Translations under genes and position numbers: made by a program | Shown here: piece by piece, positions 14,278 through 29,533 of the stretch | Position numbering within the stretch: position 1 is the stretch's first letter | Layout: the number at the start of each line of letters is the position of its first letter | The notes under the pieces: model-generated | Told to the model about the DNA's origin: nothing | Database searches by the model: none | What the model saw: the letters and a program-made list of their open reading frames with translations, nothing else | Source: a virus | IMG/VR virus record: IMGVR_UViG_3300045988_014803 | Location: 1-37,808 of that record | Strand: one strand, 5' to 3' | DNA: 37,808 nt

Positions 14278-14287
14278 GGTTCACACC

Positions 14288-14587: not shown

Positions 14588-14603
14588 ACAGCTTCACCCC
14601 TTT

Positions 14604-15743
14604 TTATTTTCCTGCTGCCATCACAAGTTTTGCAAGTTTTTGAGTGTCTGCAACCTTTGCATCCCACTCAACGAAAGCTAAAATTCCAAGTAAATGTTCC
14701 TCTGCATATCTTTCTTGCAACACCTGCATGTTAGCTTCTTCTGAAACTTTCACAGCTAAACCAGATAAGTCACCGTAATAAATGGTTGTTTTTCCTGCAA
14801 GCATCTTGTCCATCGCATCAGAGCAATAAACATCCTTGCCTAGAAGTGTATATCCCCATTTTGCTGTAAAGTCACGGTTCAACAAATAATCGCCGTCATT
14901 ATCCTTCAACTTTCTGATTGCATTTCGAGTTTCACGGTTCATAATCCAAATAGAATTACCCTGATAGTTGTCAATCACCTTGTCCTGTAAATCCATCAAC
15001 TCGTCTGATGTAATCTTTGTGGCTGCGGCAGTTGTAACAGTCATATCTGATGTAATTCCAGTTAGACCTTCAACCTTGCCTACAGTTCCGAACAAAATCT
15101 CATGTTCAAAATACAATGCGATTGCTTGTGCCATTTTTGCTTCGACAAAGCCAACAATGTCAAAGTTGGAATTGTTAATCAAGCTCTTTGAAATTTTCGC
15201 AAGACAACGTGCAAGGAATCCGCTAAGTGTAATCTGAGTGATAACAACCTTTCCAGACTCTGCTGTTGTTCCTTCATCTGCATACTGCATCACGATAGAA
15301 CTGTTTTGTGCATCATACTTTGGAAGAATCAGAGTGCCAGTAATGTTATATCTGTCTGCCATAGAGAATACAGGTGAGATTTCAATAACCTGAGAAATGA
15401 TTCTATTCCAAACAGTTGTCGGAATAAGTGTTTTTGCATCTGCTGGCATTGTTGGTGAGTCAGTATTTACAATTCCACGAATTGCATTCTCGAATGTTTT
15501 GCGATCTCTTTCTGCATCTGTCATTGCATCATGTCCATCAGGAATTTTCTTCATGCTCATTCCTGCCATTTGGTCGTACATAGCAATAGTTGCATCAATT
15601 TCCTTGACTTCCTTTTCTAAGTCTGCGAACTGCTTCTTTTCGTCTTCAGATGGTAATCTGTTTTCTGCCTTTGCAGTTTTCAACAAGTTCTCCATCTGAG
15701 CGACTTCTGCGTTTCGATTTTCGATAAGTGCTTTTACGTTCAT
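14604..15743 (-). CDS. Major capsid protein, HK97 family
   Basis: The ATG at 15743 overlaps the protease stop (ATGA) and has a GGAGGGG RBS. N-terminal coiled-coil delta-like region. Follows portal and ClpP protease. Confidence 0.88.
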   Translation of the reverse strand: MNVKALIENRNAEVAQMENLLKTAKAENRLPSEDEKKQFADLEKEVKEIDATIAMYDQMAGMSMKKIPDGHDAMTDAERDRKTFENAIRGIVNTDSPTMPADAKTLIPTTVWNRIISQVIEISPVFSMADRYNITGTLILPKYDAQNSSIVMQYADEGTTAESGKVVITQITLSGFLARCLAKISKSLINNSNFDIVGFVEAKMAQAIALYFEHEILFGTVGKVEGLTGITSDMTVTTAAATKITSDELMDLQDKVIDNYQGNSIWIMNRETRNAIRKLKDNDGDYLLNRDFTAKWGYTLLGKDVYCSDAMDKMLAGKTTIYYGDLSGLAVKVSEEANMQVLQERYAEEHLLGILAFVEWDAKVADTQKLAKLVMAAGK

Positions 15744-16513
15744 TCTTTCGCCCCTCCGTCTTTCTTTAATGAACAAATAATATTCTCGTATGCTGAATAA
15801 TCAAGCGCACGATCCTCGACAGGCTTTTTAGTCTGTTTTGGTTTTTTTAGTGCATCTGGCACATGCTTGTAATTTCTGAATAAATCTGTTGCACATGCCT
15901 GTACATCTTTCACAGTTTCAAGTTCGTTGACATTGAAATATTTCCCGATGTACATATCATCATCTGCATTGCCACTGAACCACGTTTCGTTGTTCACCAA
16001 CTCTGCAATCTTTTCTGCCGTGATTCCTTCTTTTGCCTTTGCTTCATACATTGGCAACATCAATCCATTTTCAAGCTGATTGAGTGTGTCAATGTCATGC
16101 TGTAGCTCGTTTGCATTTCCGTATGCTAACGTCACTGGCTTGTGAATCATCATCATAGAATTTTTGTAAATATTGATATCGTCTGCAACCATGGCAAGGT
16201 ATGTAGCGGCACTTGCACATAATCCATCAATGTACGCATGAATCGTTGCTCCGGTGTTCTGTCTGAATCGCTTTAACATACTGACCATTGCCGAACTTGC
16301 AAACACTGAGCCACCGCCTGAATTGATGTAAATATTAAAATCTGTAACACCATTCAAACTTTCAAGCTCTGCCTTGAATGCATTTGTATCGACTTCTGTT
16401 TCTGATTTCTCGCCAGTCCAAAAGTTTGGCTTGTTCTCATCAACAATATCACCATATACATAGAAATCTGCACTATTTTTAGTCAGATTCTTCAGGTACT
16501 TGTATTTCATCAT
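15740..16513 (-). CDS. Prohead (head maturation) protease, ClpP/S14-like
   Basis: INSGGGSVFASSAM...IDGLCASAATYLAM...MMMIHKP motifs. The start is probably the ATG at 16513 or 16510, after an AGGGGG RBS. Confidence 0.85.
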   Translation of the reverse strand: MMKYKYLKNLTKNSADFYVYGDIVDENKPNFWTGEKSETEVDTNAFKAELESLNGVTDFNIYINSGGGSVFASSAMVSMLKRFRQNTGATIHAYIDGLCASAATYLAMVADDINIYKNSMMMIHKPVTLAYGNANELQHDIDTLNQLENGLMLPMYEAKAKEGITAEKIAELVNNETWFSGNADDDMYIGKYFNVNELETVKDVQACATDLFRNYKHVPDALKKPKQTKKPVEDRALDYSAYENIICSLKKDGGAKE

Positions 16514-17735
16514 CTGCCCCCTTCTCTTCAACTTTATCAGCTTTTTCTTCTTCATCTCCACCTGTCACCTGTCCGGTGTTTGGAGTATAATACGTTCCGG
16601 TTTCAATATCATACAGAACTGCTCCAAGTCCAACATTGATCACGTCCATGCCCTCAATGTAATTGAGATTTTCCATACGACGCAACTCATTGATAGTCAT
16701 AAGTCCTGTATCTTTTGCAACCTTGTAAGCATCGAATCTCTCTTTGATGCTTGCTTTCACAATTTCTTTCGTGTCAAATTCAAAGAAGAAGTTTTTCTTT
16801 TCTTTTTCTAACAGCAACGTGCTGTTTAGCGCTGTCTCAAATGCTTTAATAATCGGATATATCGCTTCCTTAAATGTCAGATTGAAATCACTATGAATGT
16901 GGAAAACTCCATTGATTTCATCCTGTAATGTTTTCTTCGACTCATTCAACTGCATTTCAACAGAACTGTTTGACGACTCCTGAAACTTGATGCCGTTATT
17001 TAGAACCATGACGGACTCGGTGTTGTTGGCATATAACCTCTTCCATGCTTCTTTGAGCTTGTCCACTTCTTCCTGTCCAAGCCTACGCTCTGCCTGTAAG
17101 AATCCTTTTTTATTTCCGCCTGTCTGAACCAGTCCAAGCTGATACACCAACGTACTGTATGCCGTTTCAAGTGCTTTTGAAATTTCTTCAGTCAATCCCT
17201 TTCCACTTGCTCCGTCTTTGGTATTTCTCAAGAGTTTGACCATGTTCCACGGATATATTTTATCTGTACCAACATAGAACTGTACGAAGCGATTCATCGG
17301 GTCGGAATTTGACCACACAGTAACGTTCATATCTGGAATATATTTTAACGCCGTGACATTGTTCTGTCTGTCTATCTGGATGTAACAATATCCACCCTTG
17401 CCAAGCAGATAATCCTCGACCATGGCCTTTTTTGTCTGAAACCCGTCAAGCGTGTTTCCTGTGTCGCCGTTCAACATTCGTACACGGCTGTCATTCTGCA
17501 CTTCCTCAACTTTGCCTTTCTTGTACTTGTAAAGTTTGACAGGCATTGCCGCAATCGAACCACTGATAAAATCAACAGCACCTGATACAGCAGGAAGCGT
17601 GAGGGCCTTTTCCCTCGTGATTGTCTCATTGTTGAGCAATGCCGATAATAGCACATCGTCAAGCTGAACACTTTGATCGTTAAGATTTATTTTATTCTTA
17701 AATATTTTTCTGAATAGTGCCACTCTCGTTACCAC
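16479..17735 (-). CDS. Portal protein, HK97 family
   Basis: About 415 aa between TerL and the protease, with an acidic C-terminus. Start is uncertain: GTG at 17735 or GTG at 17723. Confidence 0.85.
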   Translation of the reverse strand: MVTRVALFRKIFKNKINLNDQSVQLDDVLLSALLNNETITREKALTLPAVSGAVDFISGSIAAMPVKLYKYKKGKVEEVQNDSRVRMLNGDTGNTLDGFQTKKAMVEDYLLGKGGYCYIQIDRQNNVTALKYIPDMNVTVWSNSDPMNRFVQFYVGTDKIYPWNMVKLLRNTKDGASGKGLTEEISKALETAYSTLVYQLGLVQTGGNKKGFLQAERRLGQEEVDKLKEAWKRLYANNTESVMVLNNGIKFQESSNSSVEMQLNESKKTLQDEINGVFHIHSDFNLTFKEAIYPIIKAFETALNSTLLLEKEKKNFFFEFDTKEIVKASIKERFDAYKVAKDTGLMTINELRRMENLNYIEGMDVINVGLGAVLYDIETGTYYTPNTGQVTGGDEEEKADKVEEKGADDEIQVPEESD

Positions 17736-17747
17736 CCTTTGTTAGTA

Positions 17748-17762
17748 TTTTCTATTTGAAAC
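17748..17762 (-). repeat. GTTTC-N5-GAAAC motif copy (GTTTCAAATAGAAAA)
   Basis: Lies 12 nt upstream of the portal start, in the TerL-portal gap. Confidence 0.7.
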
Positions 17763-17804
17763 ATTTTACGCAAATATATTAGCATAAATTCACGTTTCTA
17801 TCAA

Positions 17805-19505
17805 TTAAATCATCTGGAATGTGAAGTCACCTTCATTCAAGAAATAATCCTGCTCAAGAAGGTAAATTGCATTGATAAGTGATACCACCATATCAACTTT
17901 TCCGTTGCTCTTTTTCTTGCTCACATACATATTTTTGTTTGTGTCATATGCACATTTCGCATTCTGAAAGTTGATTTCAAGAAGTTTGTTTTCTGTGTAT
18001 TTGAATTTTTGTGTAAGGATTGCTTCTTTCATCCTCTTTGTTGGTGAATGCAAGACGCTTGGATACTGCTTGATTTGAACCGTGTTATAGCCCTCATTAG
18101 CCAATTTCTGCGCTGTGCTTAATGCATTCCATCTATCATATCCAATCGCCTGTATTTGTACGTTATAACGGCTCTCAAGACTCAAGATGAATTGCTCAAC
18201 AAACGCATAGGAGATAACCCTGTCACCACATGCTAACACCTTCCCACTTTTCAGCAATTCCTGATAGTTCACACGCTCTGATATTGTCTTTTTCGTGATT
18301 CTGTCTGCCGGAATGAACGCAAAACTTTCTGCAAGAATGTTATCATCATCATCTACAGAAACCATAGCGACAGATGTATTATCGTTCGATTCTGAAAGGT
18401 CAACACCTAAATATACTACTCTGCCTGACCAATCAATGTTAGCAACCTTGCATGCTTGAACATCTTTAACATCAATAAATGTCTCTGTGCCCTGTCCTTG
18501 ATAGATAATGTTGCAGTGCTTTGTTACAAAGTTCTCTCGCTCGTTCTCAATGGCAATGGCTCTGGCACGCTTCTTGATAAGATCATCCCAAATTTCAGGG
18601 ATTTCAAGTGCTGACGGATTCGCCTGTTTCAGAATAAGATCATCTGTTTCCCAATCAGACGTTTTGTCAGGCTCATACAGCAGCGCAAATACTGTTTCGT
18701 CTTTCTCAATGCCGTCAAGAATTTTTTTGGCATATGCAACCTCATCCTCGAATGGATTGTCGATTGTCGGATATTTTGTACTGATTACGAACCCAAGTTT
18801 ATTAAAGACGTTAAGCTGCCCTGACCTCATTGCATCGACAGGATATTTATTTGGCAATGCTCCAACTTCATCCGCAATAAATGCATTCGGCATACGTCCG
18901 TCCATACGGTTACTGTATGCCAACGGAATTAACGTGTTTTCATTCGGCTTGAATTTTATGTAGTCCCTTAGCAGCTTGAAACGCTTCGTTCCTTTGTACT
19001 CGTATATCAGCGGACTGCTTTTGATTGTATCTGAGATTGCCCCTTTGATTTCTCTCGACAAAGAACCATCTGGTGCAACTGAAAAGAATTTTGAGAACTT
19101 TGGTTCAGTAAGAAACAGAATGATAAAAATTGTTCCGACTGTATATGTCTTAAAATTCTTTCTGCAAATCTCCAACAGCCCTGTTTCGTATCTGCGTTTT
19201 TTAGGATTCTCCCGATACACCGTGCCTAGCATTGCGATATAAATAAGCCACTGATAACCAGTGGAGCACTTATACATAGACTGTCCGGCCTTGAGGCCTT
19301 TCGGCATAATCAACAGTTTCAGGATGTTCTCAATCTGCTGTACTTTCTTTTCGGATACGAAATACTTTCTGTCTTTTCCCTCAGCAATCCTCATCCATGC
19401 TTTCATTTGTAACTTAACGTACTTCGGAGTGGTTTTCTTTCTAATAGATTTTTTGCAATATTCGTAAGCCTTACTACTCGTCACCGCCATCATCTTCACC
19501 ACCAT
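17805..19505 (-). CDS. terL: Terminase large subunit (Terminase_1-like)
   Basis: About 560 aa. RRYETGLLEICRKNFKT is a Walker-A-like region, with a nuclease-type C-terminal half. Start is ambiguous (19505, 19493 or 19490) and overlaps the terS end. Confidence 0.88.
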   Translation of the reverse strand: MVVKMMAVTSSKAYEYCKKSIRKKTTPKYVKLQMKAWMRIAEGKDRKYFVSEKKVQQIENILKLLIMPKGLKAGQSMYKCSTGYQWLIYIAMLGTVYRENPKKRRYETGLLEICRKNFKTYTVGTIFIILFLTEPKFSKFFSVAPDGSLSREIKGAISDTIKSSPLIYEYKGTKRFKLLRDYIKFKPNENTLIPLAYSNRMDGRMPNAFIADEVGALPNKYPVDAMRSGQLNVFNKLGFVISTKYPTIDNPFEDEVAYAKKILDGIEKDETVFALLYEPDKTSDWETDDLILKQANPSALEIPEIWDDLIKKRARAIAIENERENFVTKHCNIIYQGQGTETFIDVKDVQACKVANIDWSGRVVYLGVDLSESNDNTSVAMVSVDDDDNILAESFAFIPADRITKKTISERVNYQELLKSGKVLACGDRVISYAFVEQFILSLESRYNVQIQAIGYDRWNALSTAQKLANEGYNTVQIKQYPSVLHSPTKRMKEAILTQKFKYTENKLLEINFQNAKCAYDTNKNMYVSKKKSNGKVDMVVSLINAIYLLEQDYFLNEGDFTFQMI

Positions 19506-19845
19506 TAAGGATCTTCATAAGCGGGTCTGCATCCTCGGTTGTATCACTTACGTTATAATTCTTAATGATCTTCATAAGAGTTGCAACTGTTCTATTCGCA
19601 CTATCTGTTGTTGCATTATAATCTTTTACTGCTGGACTAGAATATAAATTTTTTCTGCCTTTAACATATTCTTTTTCAACTAATATTCCATCCTCTTTTA
19701 TAGATTTTTCTAATTCATATAACATAACTAATTGCATTTGATATCTTTTGAATGTAGTTATAAAAAAATAATTACTTTGTACTCCACTTTCTTCTGCAAT
19801 TTTTAAAATCTCTTGTGCTTGTTCAGTTAAAGTCATTTTTGCCAT
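19474..19845 (-). CDS. terS: Terminase small subunit (P27-like family)
   Basis: 123 aa directly upstream of terL. ...YFFITTFKRYQMQLVMLYELEKSIKEDGILVEKEYVKGRKNLYSSPAVKDYN... has the P27-family pattern. Acidic C-terminal tail. Confidence 0.8.
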   Translation of the reverse strand: MAKMTLTEQAQEILKIAEESGVQSNYFFITTFKRYQMQLVMLYELEKSIKEDGILVEKEYVKGRKNLYSSPAVKDYNATTDSANRTVATLMKIIKNYNVSDTTEDADPLMKILNGGEDDGGDE

Positions 19846-19866
19846 ATTATCACCCCCTATAATTTT

Positions 19867-20418
19867 TTATTTAAGATTTTTTATTTGATATGATTTATTA
19901 TAAGTCTTTTGGTCCTTAATCATAATTTTTAAAAAATCTTCTCTTGTTAAATTAGATAATCTAAATACTTCTTCTGGTTTCATTCCTAATTCCTTACATA
20001 TTTCTTTTGTTGTTTTTCCTTCATCCAATAATTCTTTTACTATCGCTTTCATTGGTTCTAATAAATGAGTTCCTCTTGCTCTATTATGTGTGATAGTACC
20101 ATAGACATCTTCTGCATGGTCTTTATGGTCCACAATAACAACTGGAACTTTATTTTTTAATAATGTTTTTAATGGTTCTCTACCTGATACAGTCCATCTA
20201 TGAAAACCATCTATAATTGTATAATCCGGTCTTATAACTATTGGCATAGTCCAACCATTTGTTAATATAGACTGAACTAATAATTCAAGATTTTGTTCTG
20301 ATACTTTATTTGGGTTGTAATTATTTGGTTTTAATAAATCTCTATCAACAAATTTAACATTTTCTAAAGGTTCTAATATATTTTTATTTTCATATTTTTT
20401 TATTTCATTTTCTTTCAT
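19867..20418 (-). CDS. ParB/Srx-fold N-terminal-domain protein (IbrB-like)
   Basis: 183 aa. LLKPNNYNPNKVSEQNLELLVQSILTNGWTMPIVIRPDYTIIDGFHRWTV carries the DGxHR ParB-like core. C-terminal HTH-like segment. Confidence 0.7.
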   Translation of the reverse strand: MKENEIKKYENKNILEPLENVKFVDRDLLKPNNYNPNKVSEQNLELLVQSILTNGWTMPIVIRPDYTIIDGFHRWTVSGREPLKTLLKNKVPVVIVDHKDHAEDVYGTITHNRARGTHLLEPMKAIVKELLDEGKTTKEICKELGMKPEEVFRLSNLTREDFLKIMIKDQKTYNKSYQIKNLK

Positions 20419-20729
20419 ATACTACTCTCCTTAGCTATATCACTATATAAATTAAATTCAAAACTTCTTAACGTTCTTCCTTTGGGGTCTCCACCAATTA
20501 CTATATTACATAACTCTTTGTAATGTTTTTGATTTAAAAATGGTCCATATTTAATTAATATTCTATTAATACGCTTTTTTACATACTGCATAGATTTATT
20601 ATCAAATCTCCATTCTTCTTTTAACATCTCAAAGAATTTATTCTTATAATCAACTTCTTCGTCTTTCTTTGCTTGTTTATTTTTCTTTTGTCTTCTAAAT
20701 AATTCAGTATCATAATAAAGCATTGCCAT
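20415..20729 (-). CDS. Hypothetical protein, possibly the C-terminal fragment of the decayed IbrA-like gene
   Basis: 104 aa. In frame with 20742..21128, separated only by a TAG plus 4 codons. Confidence 0.5.
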   Translation of the reverse strand: MAMLYYDTELFRRQKKNKQAKKDEEVDYKNKFFEMLKEEWRFDNKSMQYVKKRINRILIKYGPFLNQKHYKELCNIVIGGDPKGRTLRSFEFNLYSDIAKESSI

Positions 20730-20741
20730 ATAAGCATTTGG

Positions 20742-21128
20742 CTATCTTTTACAAATCTTATCAAATAGCCCAGGGTAAAATTCACACATGTTAACTAGGC
20801 TTCTTATTGTATCTATGCTAAAAAATTGACTTATTCTTAATCTATTAATTGGAATTCCTACTTGATACATAAATTTATAGGCATCTGGAAATTCTAAGTT
20901 ATTATCTCTTATGTACATCCATACATCTTTATCAGTCCAATCATAGATAGGAAACATTTTTCCTTGTGATGTTTTTATATTTGCCAAATTCATTGATCTT
21001 TGAACACTTTCACTTGCTCTACCACCACTTACTGATAATTCAATTCTACTAGCAGTTTTAAATATGTTTTTTATTCTTGTCTTTGCCATTGTTACAACAT
21101 CAACATTTGAATATTGTTTTTTAATCAA
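20742..21128 (-). CDS. Internally deleted PAPS-reductase-like (IbrA-like) remnant
   Basis: 128 aa. The PP-loop start ELSVSGG is joined after about 24 aa to the C-terminal block FPIYDWTDKDVWMYIRDNNLEFPDAYKFMYQVGIPINRLRISQFF. The catalytic core between them is missing. Confidence 0.6.
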   Translation of the reverse strand: MIKKQYSNVDVVTMAKTRIKNIFKTASRIELSVSGGRASESVQRSMNLANIKTSQGKMFPIYDWTDKDVWMYIRDNNLEFPDAYKFMYQVGIPINRLRISQFFSIDTIRSLVNMCEFYPGLFDKICKR

Positions 21129-21744
21129 GATAAATCATCTCCCCACAAGATGGGCATATAATATATTTCTTCTCATTTTTCTCAGTGCCGACTTTTGTTT
21201 CCGTTACCATTGTTACTTGTTCATTTTTAATTTCTGGTTCTTTTTTAATTTCTTGTTCTTTATAACTTGTTTCTTGCTTTGAATCTTCTTGGGTATATTT
21301 AACATCTGTTATAACTCCATAATTACTAATTGCTTCTTCAACTTGTTCATCTGTTGCAGTCATTTGCTCCAAAATAAACTTGTCATAACCAGCGATTTCA
21401 AAATCTCCCATTCCAGTTATCTCTTGGATGTAATTATTTATTTCATCGTAATTATCTGCACCCAAGCTATAAATTTTATTATCACTTAAAATTAATTTTT
21501 TCTTTTCAACTTCTGATAGACCTGTTTTTCTATAACATTGAACATCTGCTTTATTCATTTTTACTAAAGCAAAATATAAACCATTACCAATTAAGATATT
21601 ATTATCTTCATCAATAACCATTGCTCTTGTTTGTCCAAATTGTTCTACACTTTTAATTAATTCATCAATTTGTTTATCATTATGTTTTCTAACATTCTTC
21701 TCCAATGGTTTTAGATCATTTATTTTTACTACTTCTAATTTCAT
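21121..21744 (-). CDS. Degenerate ParB-like N-terminal-domain protein with C-terminal zinc ribbon
   Basis: 207 aa. VVKINDLKPLEKNVRKHNDKQIDELIKSVEQFGQTRAMVIDEDNNILIGNGLYFAL has GNGL where ParB-type domains have GHGR. Lys/Glu-rich linker, then CPSCGEMIY at the C-terminus. Confidence 0.6.
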   Translation of the reverse strand: MKLEVVKINDLKPLEKNVRKHNDKQIDELIKSVEQFGQTRAMVIDEDNNILIGNGLYFALVKMNKADVQCYRKTGLSEVEKKKLILSDNKIYSLGADNYDEINNYIQEITGMGDFEIAGYDKFILEQMTATDEQVEEAISNYGVITDVKYTQEDSKQETSYKEQEIKKEPEIKNEQVTMVTETKVGTEKNEKKYIICPSCGEMIYLD

Positions 21745-21745
21745 C

Positions 21746-22540
21746 TCATTCTCCTCTACTTTCTAAAAATTCTCTAGCACTTGTTAATCTGCTACTAGCA
21801 TTTATTACAATGCTTTTATCAATATCATATAATTCTTGCCATACTTCATTTTCTGTTTTATCCATTATGGCTCTTTCAGTCCATTCTCCCATTGCTATTG
21901 ATCCTATTAAAAAACCCCTATCCCATTTATAAAATGGTGGTAATTCTATATTGTTATATTTTATATAAGCAAGTAATTGTTCTGCATTCCAATTAGCAAG
22001 AGGAGAAAAGACATCATAATTACTCTTACTAACAATATAATTATTTTCTTTATTTCCACATTGGTTTCCATCTTTGATTCTTCTTCCTGCTATAAATAAA
22101 TCAAAATTATATTTATTAATATCTTTATTTTGTCTTTCCCACTTTGTTGACATCCAATTTTGTCTAGTCTTACCTTTACAAAATAAATACTGTGGATGTT
22201 TTTCTAAATATTCCAGACTATATTTATCAATAACTTCTTCAATTAGATTTTTAGGTTTGTTTTCATTAATCCATTTTCTCATTTCTGGGTATTCATTAAT
22301 GCCACACCAGAATATAGGTGTTGATTTAATTCCTGATCTATTAATAATATCTTGTAGTACAATACTATCTTTACCTGCTACCCAACCATTACAAATATTT
22401 TTATATTTTTGGGATATATCTCTAATAAATGATGTTGTTTCATCTGTTAATTTATCAATATCATATCTAGTGTAAATATTAGTACATTTATCAAATGCTT
22501 CTAACCATTCACTATTATCTTTTATATTTTGTTTTTTTAG
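21746..22540 (-). CDS. PAPS-reductase-family (PP-loop, DndC/IbrA-like) protein; 5' end frameshifted relative to the only ATG
   Basis: The frame is open from 22540. NGWVAGKDSIVL is a PP-loop variant of SGGKDS. IAGRRIKDGNQCG and FSPLANWNAEQLLAYIKYNNIELPPFY are also present. The first in-frame canonical start is only at 22282; an RBS-preceded ATG at 22547 is out of frame across an A7 run. Confidence 0.65.
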   Translation of the reverse strand, partial: LKKQNIKDNSEWLEAFDKCTNIYTRYDIDKLTDETTSFIRDISQKYKNICNGWVAGKDSIVLQDIINRSGIKSTPIFWCGINEYPEMRKWINENKPKNLIEEVIDKYSLEYLEKHPQYLFCKGKTRQNWMSTKWERQNKDINKYNFDLFIAGRRIKDGNQCGNKENNYIVSKSNYDVFSPLANWNAEQLLAYIKYNNIELPPFYKWDRGFLIGSIAMGEWTERAIMDKTENEVWQELYDIDKSIVINASSRLTSAREFLESRGE

Positions 22541-22551
22541 TCAGCATAACA

Positions 22552-23535
22552 TCACCCATTCAATGATTTTACTGATACATAGCCAAGTATTATTGTTGCT
22601 ACTATAAAACTTATAACTCCAACAATTGAATTAATTGTTATTTGTCCTAAAGTTGCAAATAATACCATTAGTCCAAATGTTATTGCTGATACTGGAATTA
22701 CTATATTTGTTTTTTTCTTTAATGCTAACGGTAATAACAAAATACCAACTGCAAATGCAAATCTAATAACTCCAAATGAGCTCCATAATTGAAGTATTCC
22801 CATTTTAACAAATACTCCAAATGCAATACATAATAATAGTGAAAGTCCTGTTCCTATTCTTTTATTTCCTACCTTATGAAGTGCTACTGCAATACTATCT
22901 ATTGTTGATGTAGTTACTCCAAGAACTGCTACTAATAAAATAATATGCATTGGTAGTGTAAATTTAAAGAAAGCCATTCCTAATATTAATAACATATAAA
23001 GTCCAAATAAAAATGCTCCTAAATAATAACCTTTTTTACTTTCATCTGCTTCTGCTCTTTGCCAATGTTGTACATCTCCAATAGGTCCAGCAAATAAAAT
23101 AAGTCCAGACCATATTCCCCATAACACACCACTCATGCCAGTTGGTGCAAATACTTGTAATGGGGCTTTTGTAAATATTCCAACTGCTATAACTGCTATT
23201 ATTGATACAATAGCCATGATCCATTGATATACATCTGTTTTAACTGATGTTGGTAGTCCTTTTTTGTAAACAATTAGAGTAAAGAAAAATCCTAATGCTA
23301 TTGTTATCAAATATGCTGTAATTGTACTACCTGTAATAATTAAAAATTGTTGATTTATAAAATTCAACTGAACTAATAGGCTAAATAATTGAATTATTAA
23401 TGCTATCACTTTTACTTCTTTTCTATTATAAGTTTCTGGACTAATTTTTTTCTTGTTATATAGCCATCCAAATAATGCAAGCGTTAAGGTGTTACAATTT
23501 GTTGTCACATGATTAAAGATGTTCCCCATGCCCAA
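22552..23535 (-). CDS. Polytopic membrane protein, sodium:solute-symporter-like
   Basis: About 10 hydrophobic segments. GPIGDVQHWQRAEADESKKG resembles the SSS-family DQxxxQR segment. First gene of the AT-rich module. The annotated start is a TTG. Confidence 0.6.
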   Translation of the reverse strand: MGMGNIFNHVTTNCNTLTLALFGWLYNKKKISPETYNRKEVKVIALIIQLFSLLVQLNFINQQFLIITGSTITAYLITIALGFFFTLIVYKKGLPTSVKTDVYQWIMAIVSIIAVIAVGIFTKAPLQVFAPTGMSGVLWGIWSGLILFAGPIGDVQHWQRAEADESKKGYYLGAFLFGLYMLLILGMAFFKFTLPMHIILLVAVLGVTTSTIDSIAVALHKVGNKRIGTGLSLLLCIAFGVFVKMGILQLWSSFGVIRFAFAVGILLLPLALKKKTNIVIPVSAITFGLMVLFATLGQITINSIVGVISFIVATIILGYVSVKSLNG

Positions 23536-23594
23536 CTTGCAGCACTTGAAGCACCTATTTTTTTAAAACTTAGTTTCTCATTTCCCATTTTCAT
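23505..23594 (-). CDS. 29-aa ORF, probably the displaced true N-terminus of the membrane-protein gene
   Basis: AAGAAAGG RBS then ATG. MKMGNEKLSFKKIGASSAASWAWGTSLIM is transporter-N-terminus-like. It overlaps the start of 22552..23535 in another frame. Confidence 0.35.
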   Translation of the reverse strand: MKMGNEKLSFKKIGASSAASWAWGTSLIM

Positions 23595-23622
23595 TCACTA
23601 CCTTTCTTATATTGCCAGCTCA

Positions 23623-23638
23623 TGTTCCACGTGGAACA
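23623..23638. promoter_or_regulatory. Perfect 16-bp palindrome TGTTCCACGTGGAACA in the leader of the AT-rich module
   Basis: Self-complementary over all 16 nt. It lies between the promoter at 23690-23719 and the ATG at 23594. Confidence 0.6.
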
Positions 23639-23654
23639 CTTTCGCATGATTTTC

Positions 23655-23669
23655 GCTTCTTTTTGAAAC
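23655..23669 (-). repeat. Motif copy (GTTTCAAAAAGAAGC)
   Basis: Lies in the leader of the AT-rich module, between its promoter and its first ATG. Confidence 0.65.
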
Positions 23670-23689
23670 AAAAAACGGCTTATACTCAC

Positions 23690-23719
23690 ATTATAGCGTG
23701 AATTTGGCCGTTTATCCAA
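23690..23719 (-). promoter_or_regulatory. Sigma-70-type promoter of the AT-rich module
   Basis: The minus strand reads TTGGAT-N18-TATAAT. It is flanked by the inverted repeat AAACGGC...GCCGTTT. Confidence 0.5.
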
Positions 23720-23810
23720 AAAATCTTAGTATTTTATAATTTTTGTGATTAGTTATATGGACATTTCATCTTGGTGTAACACCAGACAATGCCCGTTACC
23801 ATGGGGGGAT

Positions 23811-24191
23811 TTATTTTAGCCTGTCAATTCTCTGCCTTGCTAGCTTCTTTAAATACTCTTTTTCAATCATTCCTGCATCAGCTAACCTGTGACAGTCTTT
23901 GCATAAGCATATAAGGTTATCGTCTTCCAACCATAGCTCTGGCTTGTCTTTCAACTTATCTATGTGATGCACTTCTATGTTACGGTAGTTATATATACCT
24001 TTGTCCTTGCATACTTCACATAGATAGTTTGCATCTTCTCGTATCTGCTTGCTCTTCTCTGTCCATGCACTCTTGCTCCTGAGCCTTGACTCTTTGTAGC
24101 TGTACTTGTAGTGCTTCTTCTCTACATGACAGACATATCCTTTCGGATGTATCTTCCCACACCTGCTACATGAATAATAGCCTTGTGCCAT
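23811..24191 (-). CDS. HNH endonuclease (packaging-associated type)
   Basis: CSRCGK...CEVCKDKG...EVHHIDKL...NLICLCKDCH is an HNH/zinc-finger signature. The start overlaps the endolysin stop. Confidence 0.85.
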   Translation of the reverse strand: MAQGYYSCSRCGKIHPKGYVCHVEKKHYKYSYKESRLRSKSAWTEKSKQIREDANYLCEVCKDKGIYNYRNIEVHHIDKLKDKPELWLEDDNLICLCKDCHRLADAGMIEKEYLKKLARQRIDRLK

Positions 24192-25264
24192 TACTTAACT
24201 CTGATACGCTGCCCAGCATAAATCTTGTTAGGATTACTGATACCATTCATAGCCTGTAGCTTCTGCCAAGTTGTGCCATATCTGGATGCAATACCTGATA
24301 GTGTATCTCCACTACGTACAGTGTAATATACTGCCTGAGATGCACCTAGCTTCTGGTTGACGATATTCTGAATAGTATTATAGTCATATCCTGCCTGTTC
24401 CAATCTGCTCTTACGGTTGTTACCGTCTCCCCACTTTCCAGCAATTACCTCACTTGCAATCTGATCATTTGACTTTCTAACAGGTGCAACCTTCTTGTTT
24501 ACAATGTCCTGAATAACATTGTAATCATATCCTGCTTGTGTAAGTCTGTTCTTGCGATCTTCACCATTTCCCCAAACTCCTGCAATTACCTCGTCTGCTA
24601 CCTGTTCATTGCTTTTTTTAACAGGTGTTGGTGTAACTGGTTTTGTTTCACCTTTTGGATTTGCGTACTTGTGCCATGCTGTTGCATCACCATAGAATTT
24701 ATCTAAGTCAAGGTTCCTACTATATCCTGCCAGTTTTCCAGAGCTTGAATACTGTCTGATAGCGCAATCATATGCTCCCTCATTCCATGGATGTGCCTGA
24801 TATCCTGTTGCGTTGTTATCTGCATACTGTGCAATCCATAAGCCATAGTCTCCAATGCCAGACACTTCTTTATACAAGCTTGCAGATGCATAGATTAAAG
24901 GTTTAACCCCCGTTTTTTCTACAATTCGATTGCACCAGTTACTAATCCATGCTCTAGCTGGACCACCTGTCCCACACAGTGCGTTGCCCTGCCACTCCCA
25001 GTCTAAGCAAAGAATAGCTTCGCCAATATATCCTTGAATGTTCTTCAAGAAATGGTCTGCTTCTGCTACTGCATTTCCACCATTTGCATAATGGTATACA
25101 CCTAATAGCTTTCCGTTAGCTTTTGCCTGCTGATAAGCTCTGTCACAATCAGGATTCACATATCCTGTACCTTCTGTAGCTTTGCAAATTACAAAGTCAC
25201 ATGGTACAACACTTAAATTAATTCCTGCTTGATAGCTTGCAATATCAATTCCGTTTAATGCCAT
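24191..25264 (-). CDS. Endolysin: GH25 muramidase + 2 CW_7-like repeats + LysM
   Basis: N-terminus [14 protein letters not shown]...[13 protein letters not shown]...GVYHYA indicates GH25. Two repeats VIAG.WGNG..RK.RL.QAGYDYN.IQ.IVN.K. C-terminal [30 protein letters not shown] is a LysM. Confidence 0.9.
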
Positions 25265-25303
25265 TTTTTTCGCCCTCCCTAATATACTTCAATATGAACA
25301 GTG

Positions 25304-25660
25304 CTAATGATTCTGTCCTCGTTCATTTTCCAAGTCCTTGATTCTTTGTTCGTGATCATCCTTGTATTTGAACAGCGTATTTACACGTTCCGTAACAAGA
25401 ATTAGTTGCTCTGATACCTTTTTCAGCTGCTCAGTCTTTTCGCCGTTATCTGCCATCATTTTCTTTGATGTATCATAGAATTCGTCAAGCTTTACGCTGA
25501 TTTTTACAAAATTCTTTTCGATGTCCATCTGCCGATTCTTTTCTCGCTCTGCCTGTTCTTCCTGACGTTTTTTGCCACCTGCAAATGTGTTAATTAACGT
25601 ACATGCCAGTGATGTCAAGGAAATAAGTAATGCGATGCTTACACTTGCTTCAGGAGTCAT
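25304..25660 (-). CDS. Membrane-anchored coiled-coil protein of the lysis cassette
   Basis: 118 aa. One N-terminal TM segment, then a charged coiled coil. Lies between the holin and the endolysin. Confidence 0.6.
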   Translation of the reverse strand: MTPEASVSIALLISLTSLACTLINTFAGGKKRQEEQAEREKNRQMDIEKNFVKISVKLDEFYDTSKKMMADNGEKTEQLKKVSEQLILVTERVNTLFKYKDDHEQRIKDLENERGQNH

Positions 25661-25864
25661 TTATTCCACCTTTTTATAGTTCGCCGAACTAATCTGTAAA
25701 CATGCTCCAATGCACGTTCCAATTGCCGAAATAGTTCCTGCAATTGCTTCTGCATAATCCCATCCCCAGATTTTGCCGAGCGTGATAATTAAAGCTGAAA
25801 ATGCGTTCGTTCCAACAAGTGCAACCCATTTTAAATTGTCATATGTTTTATTAGAAAATACCAT
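25661..25864 (-). CDS. Putative holin
   Basis: 67 aa with two hydrophobic segments and a charged C-terminus (NYKKVE). Immediately upstream of the lysis genes. Confidence 0.65.
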   Translation of the reverse strand: MVFSNKTYDNLKWVALVGTNAFSALIITLGKIWGWDYAEAIAGTISAIGTCIGACLQISSANYKKVE

Positions 25865-25905
25865 TTTTTACCTTCTTTCATAACTAAATTATACTATAAT
25901 TATTG

Positions 25906-25934
25906 CCAAAAAAAAGGGTTTTATCCCCTTTTTT
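25906..25934 (-). terminator. Putative terminator between the early region and the lysis cassette
   Basis: The minus strand reads AAGGG-gataaaa-CCCTT followed by TTTTTT. Confidence 0.4.
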
Positions 25935-25946
25935 CTTTGCCTTTAT

Positions 25947-26114
25947 TTATTTCTGCTCGATAATAATTTTTCCTTTTTCTGCCTTCACCGTGATTTCTTT
26001 TTCTGGATCAATCCCAGATTCCGCCACAATCTTTTTTGATACTGTCGCAATATACGTGTTGATCTTTAAATCACCACCGATAGTTCTGTACTTCATTTTG
26101 TTAAGTTTAGCCAT
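25947..26114 (-). CDS. Small AbrB/SpoVT-like protein (55 aa)
   Basis: Not in the ORF track. The ATG overlaps the upstream stop (ATGGCTAA). KINTYIATVSKKIVAESGIDPEKEITVKAEKGKIIIE resembles the swapped-hairpin AbrB/MazE-type fold pattern. Confidence 0.4.
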   Translation of the reverse strand: MAKLNKMKYRTIGGDLKINTYIATVSKKIVAESGIDPEKEITVKAEKGKIIIEQK

Positions 26115-26313
26115 TGTTTACCTCTCTTTCATCGTTTAAATAATCAAACTCTTTCAATAATTCATTCTTTGTTTTCTCGAATTCTGATTCAATTTGCTTT
26201 TGTACATCAATCTTAGTTTGTTTAAACCACTTCTTTTTGAATTTCTTAACTGATTCCCTGTAAGTCTTTTCGTCACAATCACACGACTGCCACCATTCTA
26301 AATCGTGTAGCAA
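26107..26313 (-). CDS. Hypothetical protein, probable 3' part of a split gene
   Basis: The TTG start has no RBS. LLHDLEWWQSCDCDEKTYRESVKKFKKKWF.... Confidence 0.55.
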   Translation of the reverse strand: MLHDLEWWQSCDCDEKTYRESVKKFKKKWFKQTKIDVQKQIESEFEKTKNELLKEFDYLNDEREVNNG

Positions 26314-26318
26314 ATCAA

Positions 26319-26420
26319 CTAAACATCATTCATCATTGCATTTAATTGTGAATCATGCATCTTGCCTGCATATTCATATTCAATGCGACTATACATATAG
26401 TTATAACTTCCGCCGCTCAT
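26319..26420 (-). CDS. 33-aa ORF, probable 5' part of the same split gene
   Basis: Strong GGAGGA RBS. MSGGSYNYMYSRIEYEYAGKMHDSQLNAMMNDV then TAG. The downstream ORF continues in another frame. Confidence 0.45.
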   Translation of the reverse strand: MSGGSYNYMYSRIEYEYAGKMHDSQLNAMMNDV

Positions 26421-26422
26421 TC

Positions 26423-26647
26423 TCAATCCTCCACAAATTCAATTTGTTCACTTTCAACGCAAAATCTAGCACCATCGCCAAACTGGACATCATAAAGTAT
26501 AGGCTTTACATAATGATCTTTACTTATAACGCAAGTATGAATCACTTTGCCAATCTGACCGATATATTCTTTTTTAAGCTTTCCTGTACTACTTATCAAT
26601 TCTTCTTCGTACTTATCAATAAGACACAGCAATCTAGCTTTACGCAT
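26423..26647 (-). CDS. Hypothetical early protein
   Basis: MRKARLLCLIDKYEE.... The ATG at 26647 follows a GAGGTGA RBS. The ORF-track start at 26665 overlaps the upstream gene. Confidence 0.6.
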   Translation of the reverse strand: MRKARLLCLIDKYEEELISSTGKLKKEYIGQIGKVIHTCVISKDHYVKPILYDVQFGDGARFCVESEQIEFVED

Positions 26648-26649
26648 TA

Positions 26650-26874
26650 TTAGATCACCTCGCAATTTCTTAAAATCTCATTGATTGGAACATTATCCGG
26701 AACATTTCTAAAAAGTCCGTATTTCTTTATTTCCAATAAAGACACATATCTGTTTATTGGCTTATTTCCAAGATTTCCTTCAAACATCAGCAATATACAG
26801 TATTCATTTTGACTTAGCCTGTATAAAGGATCTTTACTTTCTGTTCTAGGCGTCATAAGCCCTGCGTGTCTCAT
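26650..26874 (-). CDS. Hypothetical early protein (C-terminal paralogue of 26874..27287)
   Basis: 74 aa ending ...YGLFRNVPDNVPINEILRNCEVI. Confidence 0.6.
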   Translation of the reverse strand: MRHAGLMTPRTESKDPLYRLSQNEYCILLMFEGNLGNKPINRYVSLLEIKKYGLFRNVPDNVPINEILRNCEVI

Positions 26875-27287
26875 TATTTAATTACCTCGCAATTATCTAA
26901 GATTTCACAAATTGGAATCTTTGTATCAATGTCTTTAAAATATCCCTTTTCACGCATTTTAAACAAATGTATTTGATTTGCAATGTTATTATACGTTTTA
27001 TAATCTTTATGTACACTTAACAAATCATACTCAAATTGAGTTATCTTATATTTTGGCTTTTCATATGGTTTATTTAACCATTCTTTAGTCTTTTCACTGC
27101 ATCCATGTCCTGTACTAAATCCACACTCGCTACAACTAATATCACTGCATCGACAAGGCTTTCCGTCGACTAGTGCAAAACAGTAGCCTGAATTTTCTAT
27201 GATTTCATCTTTAAAATGTTCATAATTTGTTTCCTGTTTTATTTCTTGTCTTTCTTCTTCAAACATTTCTCTAGCAGTCATCTTCAT
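26874..27287 (-). CDS. Hypothetical Cys-rich early protein
   Basis: 137 aa with Cys cluster CFALVDGKPCRCSDISCSECGFSTGHGC. The C-terminus ...KGYFKDIDTKIPICEILDNCEVIK is paralogous to the next gene. Confidence 0.6.
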   Translation of the reverse strand: MKMTAREMFEEERQEIKQETNYEHFKDEIIENSGYCFALVDGKPCRCSDISCSECGFSTGHGCSEKTKEWLNKPYEKPKYKITQFEYDLLSVHKDYKTYNNIANQIHLFKMREKGYFKDIDTKIPICEILDNCEVIK

Positions 27288-27358
27288 CGTCTCCTTTCAA
27301 CTTCTGCCCACAGAATGGACAACGTGGATAATATTTGTTTTCTTGTCATGCTTCCTCA

Positions 27359-27652
27359 TCATCCTCTATTCTCTCTAAATGTTTCATATTGATATCCGCC
27401 AACTTGTTCAAACATATCCATGTACATACTTAAGATACCAATATTCATAATTGACAATAGAAGAGTGATCACCAACGCAACTAGCAACCATGCTTGGACT
27501 GCTCGCTGCGTGATTTTCTTATGCTTCTTTTTTTTCTTCTGATTGATATTCAAAATGTTCAGCTGATCATTCTGAATTTTATCAGCTTCTTCAATCTTTG
27601 CTTCTAATTCCGCTATGTACGCATCTTTCTGTGCTTGTGTTAATTTAGCCAT
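27359..27652 (-). CDS. Membrane protein with N-terminal coiled coil and Lys-rich linker
   Basis: The ATG at 27652 follows a GAGGTGG RBS and overlaps the upstream stop. TM segment AWLLVALVITLLLSIMNIGILSMYM. Confidence 0.6.
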   Translation of the reverse strand: MAKLTQAQKDAYIAELEAKIEEADKIQNDQLNILNINQKKKKKHKKITQRAVQAWLLVALVITLLLSIMNIGILSMYMDMFEQVGGYQYETFRENRG

Positions 27653-27944
27653 TTTCTTCCACCTCATTTGAATCATCGCTGTTAACATCTTCAATCAATC
27701 CAATTGAAGCTGCTTTTTTTTCTAATTCTTTATCAGCTTTCTTATTGCAAACGTAAATGATAAACCTACCACCATAACCTCCTGATATTGAACGAATATC
27801 CATATCTAATAAATCATCTGAAATACATCCTTTATACTTTTTGGGATTAATCAATACGATAAATCTAGGTGGTCTATATCTTCTTTTCTCAAAAATGTTT
27901 ACTGTAGGGCATTCAAGCAATGGAAGCAATTCTATTAGTTTCAT
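27645..27944 (-). CDS. Hypothetical early protein
   Basis: 99-aa ORF translationally coupled to its neighbours. Confidence 0.6.
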   Translation of the reverse strand: MKLIELLPLLECPTVNIFEKRRYRPPRFIVLINPKKYKGCISDDLLDMDIRSISGGYGGRFIIYVCNKKADKELEKKAASIGLIEDVNSDDSNEVEENG

Positions 27945-28153
27945 ACTTCCACACCCTCGTCTTTCGGCATTTGATGTACTTCAACATTCTTATATTCTAT
28001 TTGGTTTTGAATCCAATCTAAAACCATTAAAGCTTTTTCTTCGGTTGAATATTCACCAACGAATGAACAACCGGCCCATATCTGTTTATCATGATAAATG
28101 GTTACATCATGAATTTCTGTTAATTTTTTTCTATCCTGACTTCTAATCCACAT
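27941..28153 (-). CDS. Hypothetical early protein
   Basis: 70-aa ORF with overlapping start and stop contexts. Confidence 0.6.
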   Translation of the reverse strand: MWIRSQDRKKLTEIHDVTIYHDKQIWAGCSFVGEYSTEEKALMVLDWIQNQIEYKNVEVHQMPKDEGVEV

Positions 28154-28154
28154 C

Positions 28155-28433
28155 TTAGTACCCCTCTTTCAATCTTTCGATCCATCCTCTTATGAAATAA
28201 CGGTCGTAATCCTTTTCAATATAACATCGTCCTTCTTTTCCAGGAATCTGAGCAAACTCATAAACTTCAACATCAATTGATCTAAAGAAAGCTTCAACTT
28301 CTTTAGAATCAAGTAACACGTGTTTAATAAACTTGAAACCATCATCTGTTTTGAAACTAATATTTACAATTGTTTTAAAGCCACCTTGATATTGGACTGT
28401 TTCATAGCCAAAAATATAAAATTCAGTAATCAT
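28155..28433 (-). CDS. Hypothetical early protein
   Basis: MITEFYIFGYETVQYQGG.... The ATG at 28433 overlaps the upstream TAA by 1 nt. The longer ORF-track N-terminus is Arg/Trp-rich and overlaps the upstream gene. Confidence 0.6.
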   Translation of the reverse strand: MITEFYIFGYETVQYQGGFKTIVNISFKTDDGFKFIKHVLLDSKEVEAFFRSIDVEVYEFAQIPGKEGRCYIEKDYDRYFIRGWIERLKEGY

Positions 28434-28711
28434 TAGAACTCCTCTCCGCATTTTGTGCATTTCCTTCTTACATAAATTCCACAGTCTTCTTGAATGTCTT
28501 CTTCCTCTATATCTCCACCACAGAATGGACATACATTTTCTTTTTCGCATATATCCTGCAAGTCATCTATTGCAACTCCTACATTTTTCAATGCCTTTTT
28601 GATTTTAGTACATTCATCTAGACTCAATCCTGCATCGGCAAGTCCACTCCGAATCTGATTGCTTGCTTCCATTAAAAGCCTTGCAATGTCATACATTTCT
28701 TTTACTTCCAT
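28433..28711 (-). CDS. Zinc-ribbon protein
   Basis: 92 aa. CPFCGG...17 aa...CTKCG gives four Cys at the C-terminus. Confidence 0.6.
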   Translation of the reverse strand: MEVKEMYDIARLLMEASNQIRSGLADAGLSLDECTKIKKALKNVGVAIDDLQDICEKENVCPFCGGDIEEEDIQEDCGIYVRRKCTKCGEEF

Positions 28712-28723
28712 GTTTTTTTCCTT

Positions 28724-29002
28724 CTAAAATAATGTAAGTTGTTCATATTTCTTTTGACTATTCCTTGACTTGACTAGGTCCTCATACCTGTTTGTAAACA
28801 TGCCTTTGTAGGCTATGCCATTTATCACTGTACGATTATCCATATCTTCATCAGATTCTATAGGCTCTAATATCAGTGCGCCTAGTTCATAATCTAAATA
28901 GTATTTCGCATCTGGTATCACTGACTTGATATATTTATCAGCTTTCTTTAGCTCTAGCTTTTCAACAAAGCTTGCATATCTTCCGTAAGTGATAATAACC
29001 AC
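28724..29002 (-). CDS. Hypothetical early protein
   Basis: 92-aa ORF. Confidence 0.55.
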   Translation of the reverse strand: MVIITYGRYASFVEKLELKKADKYIKSVIPDAKYYLDYELGALILEPIESDEDMDNRTVINGIAYKGMFTNRYEDLVKSRNSQKKYEQLTLF

Positions 29003-29004
29003 CT

Positions 29005-29211: not shown

Positions 29212-29235
29212 TTTTTTATCTCCTTTTGTTATAAA

Positions 29236-29484: not shown

Positions 29485-29508
29485 GTTGTATTCTCCTTTT
29501 TTTATTTC

Positions 29509-29523: not shown

Positions 29524-29533
29524 CTTTAAGCAT

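Follow-up and report, generated by a model that had tools for sequence, protein, structure and literature searches.

We analysed the packaging region of a viral DNA of 37,808 nucleotides (nt), the IMG/VR record IMGVR_UViG_3300045988_014803. The whole stretch (1-37,808) is called the window and coordinates without a prefix refer to it; L-numbers denote the compared loci and contigs. The element in question is an AT-rich block between the HNH endonuclease gene and the large terminase gene (terL), which contains five genes for a membrane protein and for PAPS-reductase-like and ParB-like proteins (the cassette) and ends inside a small-terminase-like gene (terS). All genes of the HNH-terS-terL region lie on the minus strand. 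The gene coordinates and strand that an earlier reading of the sequence (the original prediction) gave for HNH, the terS-like open reading frame (ORF) and terL were correct. The locus L005, to which the window cassette is 96% identical in DNA, served as the intact reference copy. The region contains the following features.

24191-25264, minus strand: endolysin with a GH25 domain, two CW_7 repeats and LysM (Pfam Glyco_hydro_25, E 3.4e-33; CW_7, E 3.3e-38; LysM, E 2.7e-19)
23811-24191, minus strand: HNH endonuclease of the cos packaging module (PF01844, E 1.2e-7; phrog_144)
23756-23770, minus strand: putative cos cleavage region, GATGAAATGTCCATA, about 45 nt past the HNH stop, located by homology to the annotated cos end of phage c5
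23690-23719, minus strand: promoter-like site TTGGAT-N18-TATAAT (also TGGATA-17-TATAAT), a scan match conserved in relatives of all cassette types
23623-23638: perfect 16-bp palindrome, TGTTCCACGTGGAACA, the last backbone sequence before the cassette, present in most aligned relatives
19538-23596, minus strand: low-GC segment regarded as acquired, about 4.06 kb and about 28% G+C, with the five cassette genes and terS codons 1 to about 103
22552-23594, minus strand: disrupted gene of a predicted LeuT/APC-fold transporter, delimited by comparison with the 361-residue L005 gene; the listed ORF is 22552-23535
21741-22559, minus strand: PAPS1, a PAPS-reductase-like PP-loop protein (PF01507, E 1.8e-9 on the 271-residue L005 copy); the listed fragment ORF is 21746-22282
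21121-21744, minus strand: ParB1, a ParB/Srx-like protein of 207 residues, intact (phrog_620, E 2.1e-35)
20415-21128, minus strand: PAPS2, IbrA-like, inactivated (364 residues in L005; phrog_2302, E 2.1e-30; PF01507, E 1.5e-9 on the L005 copy); the listed ORFs are a PAPS-reductase fragment at 20742-21128 and the remainder, 104 residues, at 20415-20729
19867-20418, minus strand: ParB2, an IbrB-like ParB/Srx protein of 183 residues with a DGFHR motif, intact (ParB_N, E 2.6e-8; phrog_2159, E 2.7e-70)
19474-19845, minus strand: chimeric small-terminase-like gene, terS, 123 residues (phrog_13845 over the full length, E 1.4e-49), with codons 1 to about 103 donor-type (third-position G+C 0.11) and about 104-123 backbone-type
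19531-19538, minus strand: right-hand breakpoint, where the informative sites change from donor-type to backbone-type
17805-19505, minus strand: terL, backbone (TerL_nuclease, E 2.3e-38; TerL_ATPase, E 8.2e-8)
16479-17735, minus strand: portal gene

The endolysin gene belongs to the backbone and lies upstream of HNH. On the plus strand the window has a single long gene, at 39-1373, which encodes a large serine recombinase (Resolvase, Recombinase and Zn_ribbon_recom), indicating that the phage is temperate.

The G+C content was 0.406 in 1-19473, 0.280 in 19846-23810 and 0.411 in 23811-25264 (HNH and endolysin). The hand counts of the original prediction were thus borne out: the AT-rich block differed from its flanks (28% vs. 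40-41%), and a step was found in the computed profile. A two-segment likelihood analysis placed the right change point at 19553 (2-log-likelihood (lnL) support 19531-19646, lnL gain 32.6) and the left change point at 23773 (support 23461-23799, gain 20.7). Third-codon-position G+C rose from 0.114 to 0.432 across ParB2, terS and terL, with the best change point between terS codons 90 and 91 (19576/19575; support 19599-19572). Since the step persists at third (synonymous) positions, amino-acid composition does not account for it. The small-ORF early region at 25800-30600 is moderately AT-rich as well (G+C 0.28-0.35), so the block at 19.5-23.8 kb is the lowest but not the sole low-GC part of the window.

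No DNA match was found when positions 15000-26000 were compared by megablast with 50,697 deposited phage genomes. A scan of IMG/VR with TerL returned 80 loci, 39 of which encode a TerL 91-98% identical to that of the window. Throughout this clade the HNH protein was 90-94% identical among relatives, regardless of the cassette, and three types of terS were distinguished. Type A is 92-99% identical to the window terS and has the window's cassette genes between HNH and terS in 14/14 loci; types B (60-63%) and C (71-74%) have other DNA there. The type-A core was present in 14 of the 39 loci, always beside cassette genes, and no locus with another core type carried the cassette. DNA homology between the window and the type B and C loci ends at about 23622-23650. 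It is picked up again at low identity near 19854-19871, and only from about 19500-19545 on does it attain 80-100%. As predicted, the AT-rich block behaves as a foreign, exchangeable segment, being absent or replaced in relatives whose TerL is 91-98% identical.

When IMG/VR was scanned with intact PAPS2, all cassettes recovered belonged to the clade of the window. The search with the window terS gave 2987 homologues, some of them 86-89% identical with a different tail, and the candidate donor lineage was reached through such terS homologues. It comprises L101-L106, phage genomes of 32-36 kb from ENA and Logan assemblies, in which the gene order is holin, M23 endolysin, HNH-like, cassette, terS (122 residues), TerL, glycosyltransferase and portal. 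The five-gene cassette is intact in 6/6 of these contigs, in the order membrane protein (358-366 residues), PAPS reductase (267-270), ParB-like (200-205), PAPS reductase (368) and ParB (182), and the G+C content is 26-27% in every 1-kb bin. Relative to the window, the cassette is 88-90% identical in DNA and 82-96% in protein, ParB2 being 95-96% and the terS core about 97% identical; the corresponding values are 71-72% for TerL, 62% for the portal and 53% for HNH. Since the cassette is compositionally at home in L101-L106 and foreign in the window, the transfer would have run from the donor lineage to the window clade. A GT2 or GT1 glycosyltransferase gene lies between terL and portal in L101 (6431-7474), L102 (12108-13214) and L104 (12111-13151); the window has none there.

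At the right joint, identity to the donor in 30-nt bins was 87-100% (19830-19591), then 73-87% (19590-19531) and 53-83% below, and identity to the backbone relative L007 was 53-83% down to 19531 and 93-100% from 19530 on. The informative sites 5' of 19537 were 84 donor-like and 10 backbone-like, and those 3' of it were 6 donor-like and 97 backbone-like (Fisher p 2.7e-36). Donor-type sites end at 19538 and the run of backbone-type sites begins at 19535/19531, that is, at terS codon 103-105 of 123. At the left joint, backbone homology extends through the palindrome to about 23622 and donor homology starts at about 23596, at the ribosome-binding site of the membrane-protein gene, giving an upper boundary of the foreign DNA at about 23592-23622. 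The original prediction had put the joint inside terS, at 19600-19640 and codon ~75. Its position inside terS stood, and the rest did not: the sequence crossover at 19531-19538 is about 60-100 nt further 3', and donor-type sites run to 19538, codon ~103-105, past the last predicted core helix (residues 71-97). Likewise, the module had been drawn as reaching 23720, which leaves too much inside it, as the promoter and the palindrome lie outside the foreign DNA.

Between the terS ORF and the terL start (19505) there is an overlap of 32 nt, and the related loci examined are arranged likewise. Its 5' part is 93-100% identical in DNA to the low-GC lineage carrying the same block, and its last ~20 codons together with terL are 97-100% identical to L007. 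The nearest relatives of TerS residues 1-102 outside type A were proteins of a distant clade with TerL about 73-75% identical (77-79%); type C reached 64-75% and type B 60-67%. Residues 103-123 were closest to type C proteins from the same TerL clade (up to 90%), and distant-clade proteins reached 33-48%. The two parts therefore differ in their nearest relatives, as had been expected of a chimera. The chimeric nature of terS was thereby upheld and the extent of the donor part revised, from the N-terminal ~75 residues to residues 1 to ~103. The acidic C-terminal tail, DADPLMKILNGGEDDGGDE, does stay with the resident terL, codons ~104-123 being backbone-type. Behind the type-A core, at least three different tails occur, in step with the TerL variant, suggesting that the joint has been used repeatedly or that the tail keeps recombining with terL. 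In an AlphaFold model of TerS of moderate confidence (pLDDT 65), helices span residues 6-20, 26-51 and 71-97; the tail behind them was modelled with low confidence and includes a short helix at 108-113. The joint lies immediately past this predicted core.

The Terminase_4 model (PF05119) matched the window protein with an E of 0.019 and 15.8 bits, below the cut-off of 24.7, and gave sub-threshold matches in 22 of 25 family members (best E 1.8e-4). The full-length match, phrog_13845, is unannotated. No relevant match was found in a PDB profile search with the terS-like protein, and Foldseek of its model (pLDDT 65) gave nothing at E <= 0.001, a helical monomer model being a weak test. Given the absence of a PDB match by sequence and by fold, the assignment as TerS rests on position, size and the sub-threshold Pfam matches.

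In the viable hybrids lambda-21 (hy51) and lambda-N15 (hy4), TerS is chimeric: a left-end segment including the 5' half of its gene was replaced by that of a related phage, and the 3' half remained resident. The C-terminal part of TerS binds TerL (PMC4669245). The window resembles these hybrids in that the 5' part of TerS comes from a related phage and the TerL-binding 3' part is resident. In the lambda hybrids, cosB is exchanged together with the DNA-binding half of TerS and the specificity changes, whereas the cos-proximal region of the window stays backbone-type. The window also differs in having 3.7 kb of cargo between cos and terS and only ~20 resident codons. The chimeric TerS probably works, since it keeps a tail matching the resident TerL and the cos-proximal DNA is conserved across TerS core types.

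HK97-type HNH-dependent cos modules have the HNH gene at the right genome end, then cos, a P27-family TerS, TerL, portal, protease and capsid. The window has the hallmarks of such a module, an HNH gene beside cos (located by homology) and terminase genes, with terS-terL-portal-protease-capsid downstream, and its terS family gives weak Terminase_4 (P27 family) signals below the Pfam threshold. Unlike those modules, it carries a 1-4 kb exchangeable cassette between cos and terS. The HNH protein of HK97, gp74, stimulates cos cleavage (PMC11331095).

The same layout was found in the c5/LL-Ku/phiLdb group (Cequinquevirus, cos phages of Lactobacillus delbrueckii). A terS homologue 62-64% identical over its full length lies just upstream of terL in c5, LL-Ku, phiLdb, Ld3/17/25A and PMBT4; the TerL of this group is about 75% identical to that of the window, and megablast found no DNA-level match between the group and the window. 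The annotated order in c5 is holin, endolysin, ORF50 (HNH homologue), cos at the genome ends, ORF1 (annotated 'putative ParB nuclease'), ORF2, ORF3, ORF4 (terS homologue), terL and portal, and the late region of the window has the same order. The two differ in cassette content (ParB + TAGT in c5 vs. an IbrA/IbrB-type five-gene set in the window), and the c5 terS lacks a compositional step (third-position G+C 0.57 and 0.53). The original prediction had seen the block as breaking a canonical HNH-terS adjacency. This has to be abandoned, as the clade norm, c5 included, is lysin-HNH-cos-ParB cassette-terS-terL. Because c5 and its relatives share the layout, a cassette between cos and terS is the rule and not a disruption.

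The putative cos was found by aligning the c5 end junction with the window and 10 relatives. About 130 nt after the cos region are conserved in relatives with every cassette type and contain an A-rich tract, the TTGGAT...TATAAT site and the palindrome. A scan of the region gave 27 promoter-like matches vs. 31.4 expected, no excess, and terminator counts were likewise at chance; the promoter at 23690-23719 therefore rests on its conservation. It had been described as the module's own; being conserved in relatives with any cassette, it is part of the backbone. A second copy of TGTTCCACGTGGAACA was sought elsewhere in the window and only the single occurrence was found; this palindrome may serve a late regulator as its operator, or it may be a landmark of recombination.

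The cos-homologous core, GAT-AAAC-CC, and the following A-rich tract are common to core types A, B and C and largely to the donor lineage too. The original prediction had implied that packaging specificity was swapped with the cargo. Since the cos region is common to all TerS core types, such a change is not supported by the sequences compared. Its premise, that the N-terminal ~75 residues are the recognition part, is unsafe as well: DNA recognition by HK97 TerS uses the C-terminal helix as well as the N-terminus (PMC11331095), so that a division into N-terminal recognition and C-terminal TerL binding is a simplification.

We compared the contents of the cos-terS position among relatives. In L007 (6051-9657) it holds genes of the 7-deazaguanine pathway (ParB-like, DpdA-like, QueC, QueD, QueE and FolE). 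In L011 (6960-9676) a ParB-like gene is accompanied by a TAGT glycosyltransferase (PF20691) and UDP-galactopyranose mutase (Glf), and L010 (2270-5834) has an L011-like cassette plus a second TAGT. A ParB-N6/N4 methylase fusion occupies L014 (8463-9650), a ParB-like gene and a 132-residue protein without assigned function L032, and a deleted remnant L021. In c5 (L081, 90-1713), ORF1 encodes ParB and ORF2, annotated as hypothetical, matched the TAGT family (E 4.5e-54); with ORF2 a TAGT glycosyltransferase, a ParB-led cassette occupies the slot in c5 too. Only the type-A cassette is AT-rich (0.28), the others having a G+C content of 0.36-0.41. On this sequence comparison, the cos-terS position is a slot that exchanges alternative ParB-containing cassettes in this phage clade.

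Other insertions were seen within the terminase genes of relatives. At L028 (250-1000), about 0.7 kb is inserted at the terS/terL junction and encodes a 203-residue endonuclease with NUMOD3 and I-HmuI-like domains; L029-L031 have an insertion at the same site. Either a mobile intron or a free-standing homing endonuclease gene would probably explain the L028 insertion. An insertion of about 1.09 kb lies in terL near codon 119 (window equivalent ~19150) in L052 (8908-9997) and also in L073, L074 and L077. That of L052, possibly an intron of group I or II, lacks a long ORF.

In L005, the cassette proteins are a membrane protein (361 residues), PAPS_reduct (271), ParB-like (207), PAPS_reduct (364) and ParB_N (183). 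In the window the cassette is decaying, and two of its genes, those for the transporter and the IbrA-like protein, have clearly been inactivated. In the transporter gene, codon 30 is changed to a stop (GGA>TGA, 23507) and a deletion of 43 nt at ~23498 shifts the frame. PAPS2, which has a canonical SGGKDS in L005, has an in-frame 384-nt deletion at ~21022 that removes the PP-loop region (SGGKDS to SGGRAS), and GAG>TAG at 20744 splits it into ORFs of 128 and 104 residues. PAPS1 carries an additional base at 22538 (codon 7), so that its start codon is out of frame with the 265 open codons that follow, in which a PP-loop-like GWVAGKDS is preserved. Only the two ParB-like genes and terS are intact. 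Among the other type-A loci, L002, L006, L013, L022 and L023 lack PAPS1, and L004 lacks the first three genes. These differing deletions make the cassette look dispensable in the 40%-GC clade.

No Pfam or NCBIfam match was found for the transporter. The AlphaFold model of a 96%-identical homologue (pLDDT 86, pTM 0.84) matched ApcT, KimA, CHT1, NRAMP and AdiC in Foldseek (probability 1.0, TM 0.47-0.62, 9-15% identity), and at the level of the predicted fold the membrane protein is a transporter of the LeuT-fold/APC superfamily.

Homologues annotated as IbrA or PAPS reductase were found by tblastn in FP_Taranis and in Streptococcus thermophilus phages. The PAPS2 of L005 is 38% identical to FP_Taranis gp37 and about 25% identical to the S. 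thermophilus phage proteins annotated IbrA; gp37/gp38 of FP_Taranis are annotated IbrA/IbrB. In its intact form the cassette thus combines a PF01507 PP-loop protein, which has a C-terminal extension and IbrA homology, and an adjacent ParB_N partner, as in the IbrA/IbrB type. This name is the annotation label carried by homologues and does not explain a mechanism. In FP_Taranis, the order is transporter, ParB, IbrA and IbrB, with terS-terL directly downstream; the window differs in having a second PAPS-reductase-like gene and in being partly inactivated, and the terS that follows the FP_Taranis cassette belongs to another family.

The distribution of the cassette was examined in a genome scan with ParB2, taking the best 80 of 290 relatives (L107-L186). 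Many of these loci are in gut or rumen Clostridia, including Clostridioides difficile, Faecalibacterium, Anaerotruncus and Flavonifractor. A PAPS2 homologue lies directly upstream of ParB2 in 77/80, ParB1 at about -1.75 kb in 67/80, PAPS1 at about -2.5 kb in 49/80, and a weak transporter match at -2.7 to -3.9 kb in 43/80. The five-gene order and spacing are kept in many Clostridia prophage regions with a G+C content of 0.29-0.62. In L131, L138 and L153, the cassette lies upstream of HNH-terS and not between HNH and terS.

No functional study of IbrA/IbrB-type phage cassettes was found in the literature search. DpdB of the Dpd system is a ParB-like ATPase, DndB belongs to the ParB superfamily and DndC is the PAPS reductase of the Dnd system (PMC12839542), a precedent for a ParB-like protein and a PP-loop enzyme in DNA modification; L007 carries a Dpd/7-deazaguanine-type set in the same slot. 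Membership in these systems was rejected. Homologues of DpdA, Que, DndA, DndD and DndE were not found in the window cassette; a Dpd or 7-deazaguanine system was set aside, as DpdA and the preQ0 genes (FolE, QueD, QueE and QueC) are absent from it, and a Dnd or BREX type 4 system, as the PADLOC BrxP matches are weak (E 4.7e-7 and 4.8e-4), cover short stretches and come with no other components. DNA modification would be the most likely role, because the slot otherwise holds DNA-modification genes and ParB-like partners occur in Dpd and Dnd. By this analogy, we tentatively regard the IbrA/IbrB cassette as a DNA-modification or anti-restriction system, an assignment to which we give somewhat less than an even chance. 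Its genes would be co-transcribed with those for packaging; a precursor would enter through the transporter, adenylation by the PP-loop enzymes would activate a substrate, and DNA would be the target of the ParB/Srx partners.

Taken together, these results suggest that about 4.06 kb (from ~23596 down to 19538 on the minus strand) was gained by a temperate cos phage of about 40% G+C through homologous recombination with a related lineage of phages whose G+C content is 26-27%. On the left, the crossover would have occurred just past the conserved cos/late-promoter/palindrome region; on the right, it would fall inside terS, where the helical core gives way to the acidic C-terminal tail, producing a TerS with the donor core (residues 1-~103) and the resident tail. 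We consider this account as a whole (a low-GC donor segment, a chimeric terS and a five-gene cargo) to be quite likely.

If no transfer had occurred, the G+C gradient would reflect a core rich in Lys, Ile, Asn and Tyr, a tail rich in Gly, Asp and Glu, and the terL overlap. Codons 1-75 do have a lower G+C content than the rest in all terS alleles (e.g., 0.35 vs. 0.45 in types B and C). However, third-position G+C is 0.11 vs. 0.33-0.43 in type A only, compared with 0.36 vs. 0.44 in types B and C, and the 5' part of terS shares 93-100% identity with a lineage that shares no more than 71-72% in TerL. The reciprocal identity switch at the breakpoint rules this explanation out, and we give it a negligible probability. 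Another reading takes the window for a metagenomic assembly chimera of two co-occurring, related phages. The closest relatives found are metagenome-derived contigs, with no closely related isolate phage among them, and at both joints the sequence common to the two lineages would suffice to misdirect assembly. Nevertheless, the same two junctions recur in 14 other contigs with differing backbones and internal deletions, one of which (L085) is from a different metagenome, and the 92%-identical type-A terS cluster has 196 members, so that an artefact is extremely improbable.

The direction of transfer is less constrained, since the cassette and the type-A core could be ancestral in the 40%-GC clade and have been acquired by the low-GC lineage, or both lineages could have received them from a third source. 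The occurrence of the cassette in prophages with a G+C content of 0.29-0.62, which indicates that it moves widely, fits this scenario. Against it, the segment (G+C 0.28, third-position 0.11) matches the low-GC lineage (0.26-0.27) and is 12 points off the window backbone, and the cassette is polymorphic and often decayed in the window clade but intact in 6/6 low-GC contigs. We regard this scenario as unlikely. We hold similarly little confidence in a functional coupling of the TerS core to the cassette, through modified DNA or a site in the cassette, by which specificity moved with the cargo. Type A does occur with the IbrAB cassette in 14/14 loci and 6/6 donor contigs, type B occurs beside cassettes of TAGT and Glf, and in c5 a B-like core is found together with ParB and TAGT. 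Adjacent genes can, however, be co-inherited without a functional link. Moreover, type C cores stand beside three different cassettes, the cassette precedes an unrelated terS in FP_Taranis, the cos core and A-rich flank are common to all core types, and the window keeps the type-A core although its cassette is largely inactivated.

Several points weigh against the acquisition of a low-GC cargo segment from a donor phage as set out above. The cos site is placed by homology with c5, and the direction of transfer is read from base composition alone. The identity of terS is putative, being positional with sub-threshold Pfam matches. The single-base frameshift in PAPS1 could be a sequencing error. 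The FP_Taranis cassette precedes a terS of another family, which makes the linkage with this TerS family physical and not obligatory. The proposed role of the cassette is guilt by association with its slot, and biochemical evidence for it was not found in the literature searched. Finally, the PADLOC scan of the cassette gave only the weak BrxP-like matches and one to the N-terminal part of the MTase_II model (ParB1, E 6.8e-14).

The joints were resolved to within 8 nt on the right and about 30 nt on the left, a likely donor lineage was named, and the crossover was placed at a protein domain boundary. The finding is fairly ordinary phage mosaicism: module exchange, a chimeric TerS and an IbrA/IbrB-type cargo are of already-known kinds, and current understanding is not overturned. 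A packaging gene can tolerate module exchange when the TerL-matching tail stays with TerL, and the cos-terS position in this phage family appears to be a cargo slot for DNA-modification cassettes, such cassettes having occupied it in all relatives examined. A broader proposal, which we consider speculative and rather unlikely, is that the transporter with its two pairs of PP-loop and ParB/Srx proteins forms an uncharacterised modification system interchangeable with the other slot cassettes, and that the TerS core/tail boundary is a recurrent exchange point between incompatible large terminases. If true, TerS core/tail exchange would let cassettes move between phages with incompatible large terminases. 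The point of interest is the function of the cassette: the combination of IbrA/IbrB and a transporter, widespread in prophages of gut Clostridia, is a candidate DNA-modification system.

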